Origin: Escherichia phage Elenatom
Length of the DNA: 64,000 bases
Reading direction: 5' to 3' (one strand)
Sequence record: PP925844.1
A program made the position numbers and the translations under genes. Positions 17,931 through 18,923 of this stretch are shown here, in pieces; position 1 is the stretch's first letter, and every line of letters begins with the position of its first letter. Below the pieces are notes generated by a model. That model was not told where the DNA came from. It did no database searches and saw nothing but the letters and a program-made list of their open reading frames with translations.

Positions 17931-18290
17931 TTAACCTCTATTCATAAAAGCATTAAAAATTTGATCGTCAATAGATGGTACAGTGATATCTTCCATTTCA
18001 TTTAATAAATCATTAATTTCGTCAGATAGCATAACACATGTACCCTGATTTCCAGTAATTGCTACTGCACAATGAAGAACATTTTCTTTATTAAATTTTA
18101 AGTTAATATTTTCGTGATGAAAATCCTTTACCGCCGAATATACCTTTAAAATCAAATTATCTTTTACTATAATATACCCAACTTCACTGTTAAAACGCGG
18201 TTCATAAAAGCCACAATGAATGATTTCATCTACTAAACTAAATGAAATTTTTTCCATATTTAAAAATGAAAGTTCAGAAGAAATATGCAT
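17931..18290 (-). CDS. hypothetical protein
   Basis: 119 aa; C-terminus SIDDQIFNAFMNRG repeated in the next ORF. Confidence 0.5.
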   Translation of the reverse strand: MHISSELSFLNMEKISFSLVDEIIHCGFYEPRFNSEVGYIIVKDNLILKVYSAVKDFHHENINLKFNKENVLHCAVAITGNQGTCVMLSDEINDLLNEMEDITVPSIDDQIFNAFMNRG

Positions 18291-18291
18291 A

Positions 18292-18618
18292 TTAACCTTT
18301 ATTCATAAAAGCATTAAAAATTTGATCATCAATAGAAACTTTTACTTTAGGCTGTTCTTCAAACGGTAATTCATATCCACATATTACAATTTTGTGATCG
18401 ATACCAAAATACACAGAAGCAATATTATTAATATTATTTTCAGTGAAATCTAAATCAACATCAATGTCTTTTTGACTAACGCTCAAAGGATAATTAATAC
18501 GAATAATTCGATTATCTTTAACAAAGATTCCACCGACATACTCTGTGCTGCGTTTAAAGTTTACACGTTTCCTAAATGAAAAATATTCAGGTTCTTTATG
18601 GGCTCGACTTATAGGGCT
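18292..18618 (-). pseudogene. start-less paralog of the adjacent 119-aa gene
   Basis: track ORF (18292-18486) begins at a TTG; the frame stays open about 44 more codons upstream without ATG/GTG and is alignable to the neighbour. Confidence 0.35.
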
Positions 18619-18923
18619 TAAAGTGTATTCCGAATAAATCCTACACCTTCAATATGAGCCAAAGTGTCTTGATTAAACCAATTATAATCGTATGCCAAAT
18701 CCATTAAATTGTAATATGTGAAAGGCACCTGATTAACATCATATGTTGTACCTTTAAAATCTGCCCAGGCAACGATTTCGTTATCTTTAACAATTACAAA
18801 AATTGTGCCAATAAGATATCCACGGTTATTTTCATCAGGCGTTATATTATAACATTGTGCATCAGGAAATTTACCGTATTTAAACGGTGGATTTTTGTGC
18901 ATATAATAAATCATATTATTCAC
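18618..18923 (-). CDS. hypothetical protein
   Basis: 101-aa ORF. Confidence 0.5.
   Translation of the reverse strand: MNNMIYYMHKNPPFKYGKFPDAQCYNITPDENNRGYLIGTIFVIVKDNEIVAWADFKGTTYDVNQVPFTYYNLMDLAYDYNWFNQDTLAHIEGVGFIRNTL

Follow-up and report, generated by a model that had tools for sequence, protein, structure and literature searches.

Two neighbouring frames on the minus strand of Escherichia phage Elenatom (record PP925844.1) encode products with closely similar ends, and one of them has no evident start codon. What is this start-less copy, and how does it relate to its intact neighbour? The window, i.e. the whole stretch of DNA analysed, 64,000 nucleotides in length, comes from a T4-like phage (Tequatrovirus), 99.7% identical to Escherichia phage Pinarejo across 20 kb; at the locus itself, identity to Pinarejo and to Shigella phage Sf21 is 99.2-99.3%.

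The split adfA gene

Gene order along the minus strand is that of T4: gene 41, dmd, tifA/61.4, sp, the pieces of adfA, a short paralog, 61.1 and 61. The position of adfA between sp and 61.1/61 is conserved, the same order being found in T4, RB69, Pinarejo and Sf21. The flanking features are the following:

19771-21198, minus strand, helicase gene 41
19770-19742, promoter-like site near dmd
19530-19712, minus strand, dmd, a member of the published "anti-toxin-antitoxin island"
19220-19528, minus strand, tifA/61.4 homolog, a member of the same published island
18916-19209, minus strand, sp (spackle), the upstream neighbour, whose stop overlaps the adfA start region (TAATATG)
17765-17929, minus strand, 61.1 homolog, 54 aa, the downstream neighbour
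16734-17762, minus strand, primase gene 61, after 61.1

The concept of an island in which anti-toxin-antitoxin genes are grouped comes from PMC9391042. Two AdfA-family members lie in tandem between sp and 61.1, within the dmd-tifA-sp-adfA counter-defence island.

Two peculiarities of the region may be mentioned here. TifA is 102 aa long in the window and in Pinarejo, versus 85 aa in T4, Sf21 and 303Ecol101PP: in the frame at 19220-19528 a difference in the length of an A run loses the stop after ...EVLK, leading to 17 extra residues (IAVYFCWKLRYYININY). In addition, the GenBank label "major capsid (domain-containing) protein" is found at the locus in phages teqdroes, Phaginator and JLBYU24/31, where the gene under the label was not mapped, and in phage Killian, where it sits directly under the AdfA match; nothing in our analysis of the locus was found to support this product name.

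Between sp and 61.1, mechanical ORF finding lists three minus-strand ORFs, of 101, 64 and 119 aa, the first being counted from an upstream GTG. A sequence-only reading of this DNA had taken the last two, a 64-aa TTG ORF (18292-18486) and a 119-aa ATG ORF (17931-18290), for tandem paralogs, the former being either a decaying duplicate or a gene using a non-canonical start. The ORFs, their strand and their coordinates are as it described them, and so are the like ends, SIDDQIFNAFMNRG in the 119-aa product and SIDDQIFNAFMNKG in that of the start-less frame. Paralogy is confirmed by BLASTP, with 32/89 identities (36%, E 1e-10) between the 119-aa protein and the whole 118-codon frame; the alignment begins 22 codons upstream of the TTG, i.e. 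the similarity does extend beyond the putative start. The frame is indeed open upstream of the TTG, for 54 codons rather than the 44 or so reported, the latter figure being the distance to the stop of the previous ORF (18618). The tandem arrangement and, as an outcome, the decay were thus rightly recognized, while neither of the two proposed causes holds: the copy belongs to a gene of 210 codons, whose 3' part it forms, and a private 10-bp deletion cuts it off from the ATG at 18914.

In Pinarejo, Sf21, 303Ecol101PP and NR1 a single annotated CDS of 633 nt (210 codons plus stop) occupies this place, with the same ATG and the same stop; the T4 counterpart, of 627 nt, is annotated 61.2. All five relatives examined carry one uninterrupted gene running from the sp-proximal ATG to the stop, 208-210 codons long. 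In none of them is there a short ATG-initiated gene in its place, theirs being twice that length. T4 61.2 is adfA, encoding anti-DarT factor A (PMC9391042; PMC11825919), a protein described by LeRoux et al. (2022, Nat Microbiol), as cited in PMC11825919 and PMC9391042. Aligned with four of the relatives, the window differs from them in length only by a gap of 10 nt at 18637|18636, a site at which T4 and RB69 retain the corresponding protein segment (DISYS). The resulting features are:

18292..18914, minus strand, disrupted allele of adfA (T4 gene 61.2, anti-DarT factor A), 623 nt versus 633 nt in relatives
18618..18914, minus strand, N-terminal fragment ORF, 98 aa plus TAA: residues 1-93 of AdfA, then IRNTL out of frame
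18636..18637, minus strand, deletion junction, TGATATTTCA (coding strand), 10 bp missing, placement ambiguous by 1 nt
18292..18648, minus strand, C-terminal remnant of adfA, 118 codons plus stop, no ATG or GTG, PF23813 98-211
18292..18486, minus strand, TTG-initiated ORF, 64 aa, from mechanical ORF finding, PF23813 profile 148-211

Reading from the ATG at 18914, which has a Shine-Dalgarno-like AGGTG upstream, 93 AdfA codons are followed by the frame shift, five further codons (IRNTL) and a TAA at 18620-18618. Each piece matches the AdfA profile PF23813 far above its cutoff of 27 bits: the N-terminal fragment covers positions 1-94 (E 1.8e-52, 178 bits) and the C-terminal frame positions 98-211 (E 1.1e-75, 254 bits), while residues 1-210 of the intact Pinarejo protein span the profile from 1 to 211 (E 3.9e-136, 452 bits). 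An uninterrupted ORF of about 208-216 codons is missing from the window, where the deletion splits the gene into the 98-aa ORF and the start-less 118-codon frame. The identity of the gene, the 10-bp deletion and the reading frames are direct observations.

In the sequence as given, the deletion at 18637|18636 inactivates full-length adfA, and the remaining 114 AdfA codons, open in another frame without a usable start, would most likely go untranslated. We put at roughly 90% the probability that the upstream copy is a frameshift-disrupted adfA allele beside an intact short paralog, a figure that refers to the explanation as a whole, with the tolerated loss and the role of the paralog included.

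Could the copy rather be a duplicate of the 119-aa gene in the course of decay? It is paralogous to that gene and non-functional as written, and to this extent it would fit. It is, however, the ortholog of T4 61.2, the family member that has been characterised by experiment, and among the relatives examined only phage CT01 has it broken. Apart from the gap, a single base distinguishes it from the Pinarejo gene across its length, so that the break must be very recent, and gradual decay does not account for it; the duplication itself, on the other hand, is ancient, given a nucleotide identity of only 43% between the bodies of the paralogs. Comparison with relatives refutes the decaying-duplicate reading, to which we assign a very small probability.

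Nor does the C-terminal frame look like a gene of its own. Its 118 open codons do encode a complete copy of the domain found standing alone next door, and they overlap the upstream frame by about 30 nt (18648-18621), where a -1 shift would restore a nearly full-length protein; a functional C-terminal AdfA domain, similar to the 119-aa paralog, might in principle be expressed from the TTG or another near-cognate start, by frameshifting or by reinitiation. In contrast, the gene is uninterrupted in five relatives out of five and, the split being private to one genome, no expression signal can have evolved for it. The frame 18648-18292 contains neither ATG nor GTG and only one TTG, at 18486, with no Shine-Dalgarno-like sequence upstream of it. 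No X XXY YYZ slippery heptamer is present in the overlap (GGA TTT ATT CGG AAT ACA CTT TAA), nor does a restart codon lie close to the TAA at 18620-18618. Translation from the TTG would, moreover, yield a domain without its first three strands. Separate expression of the remnant is therefore most improbable. Two specific forms of it were considered and rejected: a programmed -1 frameshift or split gene, in view of the missing heptamer, the unique junction and the uninterrupted relatives, and a non-canonical start or reinitiation, in view of the lone TTG without a Shine-Dalgarno.

In intact AdfA the TTG is the codon of Leu147, 428 nt downstream of the ATG of the gene. The frame remains open for 54 codons upstream of the TTG, to 18648, and is closed by a TGA at 18651-18649. 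These 54 codons are coding by orthology: they account for positions 98-147 of the profile within the 254-bit match, and they agree with the nearest relatives at every aligned base. Compared alone with the 119-aa paralog by BLASTP, they give no significant similarity (E 0.9). The locus can be explained without any unusual start codon: the TTG start is an artefact of the ORF caller, the 64-aa ORF is no separate gene, and the remnant is most likely not translated. We suggest that 18292-18914 be annotated as disrupted adfA, with no separate 64-aa TTG gene and no 98-aa gene (101 aa from the GTG).

The deletion as mutation or artefact

A private deletion in a single record may be a mutation of the phage or an error of the record. 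The junction sequence was absent from 50,697 phage records, from IMG/VR, from JGI metagenomes and from GTDB genomes, while its intact version, used as a positive control, was found in IMG/VR. Similarly, a look-up of the exact truncated product, 98 aa long, gave no record. Since both junction and product are missing from the collections searched, the deletion allele is private to the Elenatom genome.

Over 35 kb, 312 SNPs, arranged in clusters, separate the window from Pinarejo. The segment from 12.6 to 29.7 kb features only 5 SNPs but 4 deletions:

13209, 1 nt lost from a T6 run, ORF-breaking
15860, TTC lost in frame, in a dam-like methyltransferase
18637|18636, 10 nt lost, in adfA
24437, 1 nt lost from a C run, altering the C-terminus of a 43-aa ORF upstream of imm

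The uniqueness of the junction among all collections searched, together with this excess of deletions over SNPs, could be taken to mean that the 10-bp deletion arose in sequencing or assembly, in which case the phage would have an intact 210-codon adfA and only the known tandem pair. Two of the four deletions, at 13209 and 24437, are ORF-breaking losses of one nucleotide in homopolymers, and private indels of this kind are the typical pattern of consensus errors; at 13209, Sf21 sides with Pinarejo. An artefact has to be counted as possible, if less likely, because these homopolymer losses look like consensus errors. The loss in adfA, however, is of a different kind: it lies outside homopolymers, with a microhomology of only 1 nt at the junction, and no common sequencing platform typically makes errors of 10 nt in such a context. 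Genuine frameshifting deletions do occur in adfA, such as the 49-bp one in CT01, and the gene is known to be dispensable. On balance, we consider the adfA deletion to be probably a genuine loss-of-function mutation rather than an assembly error. The break is ordinary gene loss: the oddity first flagged is plainly explained as a freshly broken, or mis-assembled, known dispensable gene.

Two related observations deserve mention. The deletion at 13209 breaks a 160-aa ModA.3-like ("Mrh-like") ORF (minus strand, about 12804-13285) after about 26 codons, the extra T being present in both Pinarejo and Sf21; either the ORF is another accessory gene turned pseudogene, or the missing T is a consensus error in the homopolymer. 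Furthermore, public assemblies contain a 69-aa protein (P0023) that corresponds to the N-terminal part of window-type AdfA (...KDNEIVAW) before it, too, runs out of frame; it may represent either a real variant or a read error of a raw assembly.

The short paralog, the tail module and the AdfA family

The intact neighbour of the broken gene is:

17931..18290, minus strand, short single-domain AdfA-family paralog, 119 aa, intact, ATG with AAGG upstream, phrog_4122

Its assignment to PHROG phrog_4122 has an E of 3.5e-63, and in Sf21 the gene bears the note "similar to phage RB32 gp33". An IMG/VR contig encodes a protein 100% identical to the 119-aa ORF, and tblastn finds the same complete identity in the coding region of Sf21 gp34; the Pinarejo counterpart is 99% or more identical. 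Short genes of this kind are found by tblastn, at a coverage of 80% or more, in about 332 phage records. Similarity to AdfA is restricted to one half of the long protein: against PF23813 the 119-aa protein scores 31.1 bits (cutoff 27, E 1.9e-7), over profile positions 129-211 only, and the N-terminal half of AdfA, hence the two-half architecture, is missing. In a comparison of profiles, hhalign of AdfA C-halves with short paralogs gives a probability of 98.5% (E 2e-15).

Between allele types, dN/dS of the short gene is 0.30-0.33 at a dS of about 0.4, similar to that of adfA (0.17-0.31) and about three times that of sp or 61.1. The short paralog is a real gene under purifying selection, and is not decaying. 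An AlphaFold2 model of it (pLDDT 83; >90 for residues 11-100) predicts five β-strands, a helix, a strand, a helix, a low-confidence linker and a C-terminal tail helix; neither this model nor that of AdfA gave a match to a known fold.

The literature searched yielded no experimental data on short AdfA-family proteins. By analogy with AdfA, we infer that the short paralog would act as a toxin blocker, a small protein that would bind a toxin and block it, the target probably being another variant of DarT. Phage T2 has been described as having no adfA homolog (PMC11825919). In T2 (PV648363, locus L006, 1501-1857) a short family member is found alone between sp and 61.1, and its product passes the PF23813 cutoff (32.5 bits versus 27), with the C-terminal half of the profile only. 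The short form of the family is overlooked in the DarTG counter-defence literature.

The 3' ends of the two genes in the window are remarkably alike at the nucleotide level, forming a direct repeat of 49 nt, 47/49 identical, with a spacing of 361 nt:

18288..18336, minus strand, tail module copy 1: last 14 adfA codons (SIDDQIFNAFMNKG), stop, Shine-Dalgarno, ATG of the next gene
17927..17975, minus strand, tail module copy 2: last 14 codons of the short paralog (SIDDQIFNAFMNRG), stop, Shine-Dalgarno, ATG of 61.1

What is shared is the sequence encoding DDQIFNAFMN[KR]G, the stop, the ribosome-binding site and the ATG, the conserved C-terminal tail peptide being DDQIFNAFMNRG. Where the two paralogs of the window have identical residues, the codons are also the same at 12/13 sites in the tails and at 14/27 in the bodies. 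Synonymous choices are common to both tails of one genome: CAA...TTT ATG AAT ARA in Tequatrovirus, CAG...TTC ATG AAG CGA in both copies of Gaprivervirus. This pattern points to tails evolving in concert within genomes.

When the window is compared with 303Ecol101PP, only the body of the short gene diverges (40-nt windows at 75-90% identity), and identity is back at 95-100% precisely where the two tail modules lie. A divergent patch bracketed by tails in this way fits cassette-like exchange and strong local diversification equally well. In the former case, the 49-nt module may serve as a homology arm, by which gene bodies would be swapped, duplicated or deleted as cassettes, and both the concerted evolution of the tails and the three architectures would follow. 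These are sp-adfA-61.1 in T4 (long form only), sp-short-61.1 in T2 (short form only), and that of the window type, with both forms; by rough counts, full-length adfA occurs in about 486 phage records, versus the 332 or so of the short gene. In T2 the stop of sp is followed by TTAGAGGTTAGTATG, resembling the last bases of the tail module, which suggests that adfA was deleted there.

A different tandem is found in the Gaprivervirus phages CJ20 (locus L007, 1060-1496 and 1498-1854) and TH44 (locus L008), where two different short members follow each other, of roughly 145 aa (phrog_8539) and roughly 118 aa. Both classes end with DDQIFNAFMKR[DG], and their tails co-vary at synonymous sites; in CJ20, the annotated start of the first short gene overlaps sp.

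The family is very small: among 1.84 billion representative proteins, an exhaustive profile search retrieved 10, all of them from T4-like phages, either as whole proteins (one full-length cluster and four short ones) or as fragments. Intact family members all end with DDQIFNAFM[NK]RG. A degenerate DNA search of IMG/VR for the tail motif found 16 loci, whose contigs, where sized, are T4-like in length, and the proteins at these loci all fall into three body classes of the AdfA family. An apparently N-truncated RB69-type allele (L023) was discarded, being simply cut by the end of the stored locus.

The domain may have been duplicated within AdfA as well. The N-half of AdfA has the same FV.VKDNEI hairpin as the C-half, and predicted secondary structure elements follow the same order in both. 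Alignment by hhalign of the N-half with C-halves and short paralogs covers 75 collinear columns (P 3e-4), at a probability of only 39%, and BLASTP of N-half versus C-half gives E 0.2-0.7. An internal duplication, by which AdfA would contain a possible third copy of the domain, is suggestive only.

Taken together, these features outline a proposal which we put forward tentatively and do not regard as the likelier outcome: short genes may be unrecognised stand-alone inhibitors of DarT variants, consisting of a variable β-sheet domain plus an invariant helix on a flexible linker, with the tail acting as homology arm. If this were true, a functional member of the family would be present in T2 and in other such phages that are said to "lack adfA". 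Long and short forms of AdfA in three architectures, and the short form with its tail module in particular, are a modest lead, and a concerted tail module bracketing the only divergent patch makes a testable model of cassette exchange for a phage counter-defence island.

Tolerance of the loss and comparison with known systems

AdfA binds DarT1, yet a T4 adfA deletion stays fully resistant to DarTG1, the effective counter-defence of T4 being the NADAR enzyme AdfN (gp30.3), and adfA was reported missing in 4 of 17 Tevenvirinae tested (PMC11825919). As adfA is dispensable for DarTG1 resistance in T4, where AdfN does that job, we infer by analogy that its loss in the window should be tolerated. 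AdfN of Pinarejo is intact and 99% identical to that of T4; Pinarejo adfN lies outside the region matching the window. Breakage of adfA has occurred elsewhere: Shigella phage CT01 (OK018184, locus L010, 801-1363) features independent deletions with respect to T4, one of 49 bp, frameshifting, and one of 15 bp, in frame, and its disrupted adfA is annotated as two hypothetical proteins.

In RB69 AdfA, the R164H change switches on DarT1 neutralisation (PMC11825919). The part of AdfA that is lost through the frameshift includes the equivalent of this residue, which governs DarT1 neutralisation. In the AdfA alignment RB69 R164 corresponds to T4 His165 and to Asn167 of the window and Pinarejo (about 18422-18424 in the window); a His at the R164H position is not present in window AdfA. 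To judge from this residue, the window-type allele may never have matched the tested DarT1. The equivalent residue in the short paralog is His72 (about 18147-18149), H in the window/Sf21 type and N in the T2/RB32 type. The position is variable in both long (R/H/N) and short (H/N) forms and, on the strength of the alignments, may be a specificity determinant; that the DarT1-switching residue of RB69 varies in both is of modest wider value.

The locus can finally be set against known systems. RB32 gp33, HY01_0032 and T2 CDS0172 are short AdfA-family proteins, of which the common RB32/T2 type is 72-77% identical to the 119-aa ORF of the window. Dmd (anti-RnlA/LsoA) and TifA (anti-ToxN) are, like AdfA, small proteins which bind and neutralise toxins of host toxin-antitoxin systems (PMC9391042), and they share with adfA the same T4 island and early transcription unit. 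For the break itself, a precedent is offered by RB69 30.3 (adfN), in which a 1-nt insertion causes a frameshift and DarTG1 sensitivity (PMC11825919): there too a small indel put a counter-defence gene of the same system out of action in a T-even phage from nature, although the gene is a different one and its frameshift has a demonstrated phenotype. The closest comparison is with AdfA of T4 (gp61.2) and RB69 (ORF034c), to which the restored window protein is 72% and 82% identical, respectively. From these the window differs in two ways: its allele type has Asn167 in place of T4 His165 and RB69 Arg164, and its copy is broken by a private 10-bp deletion.
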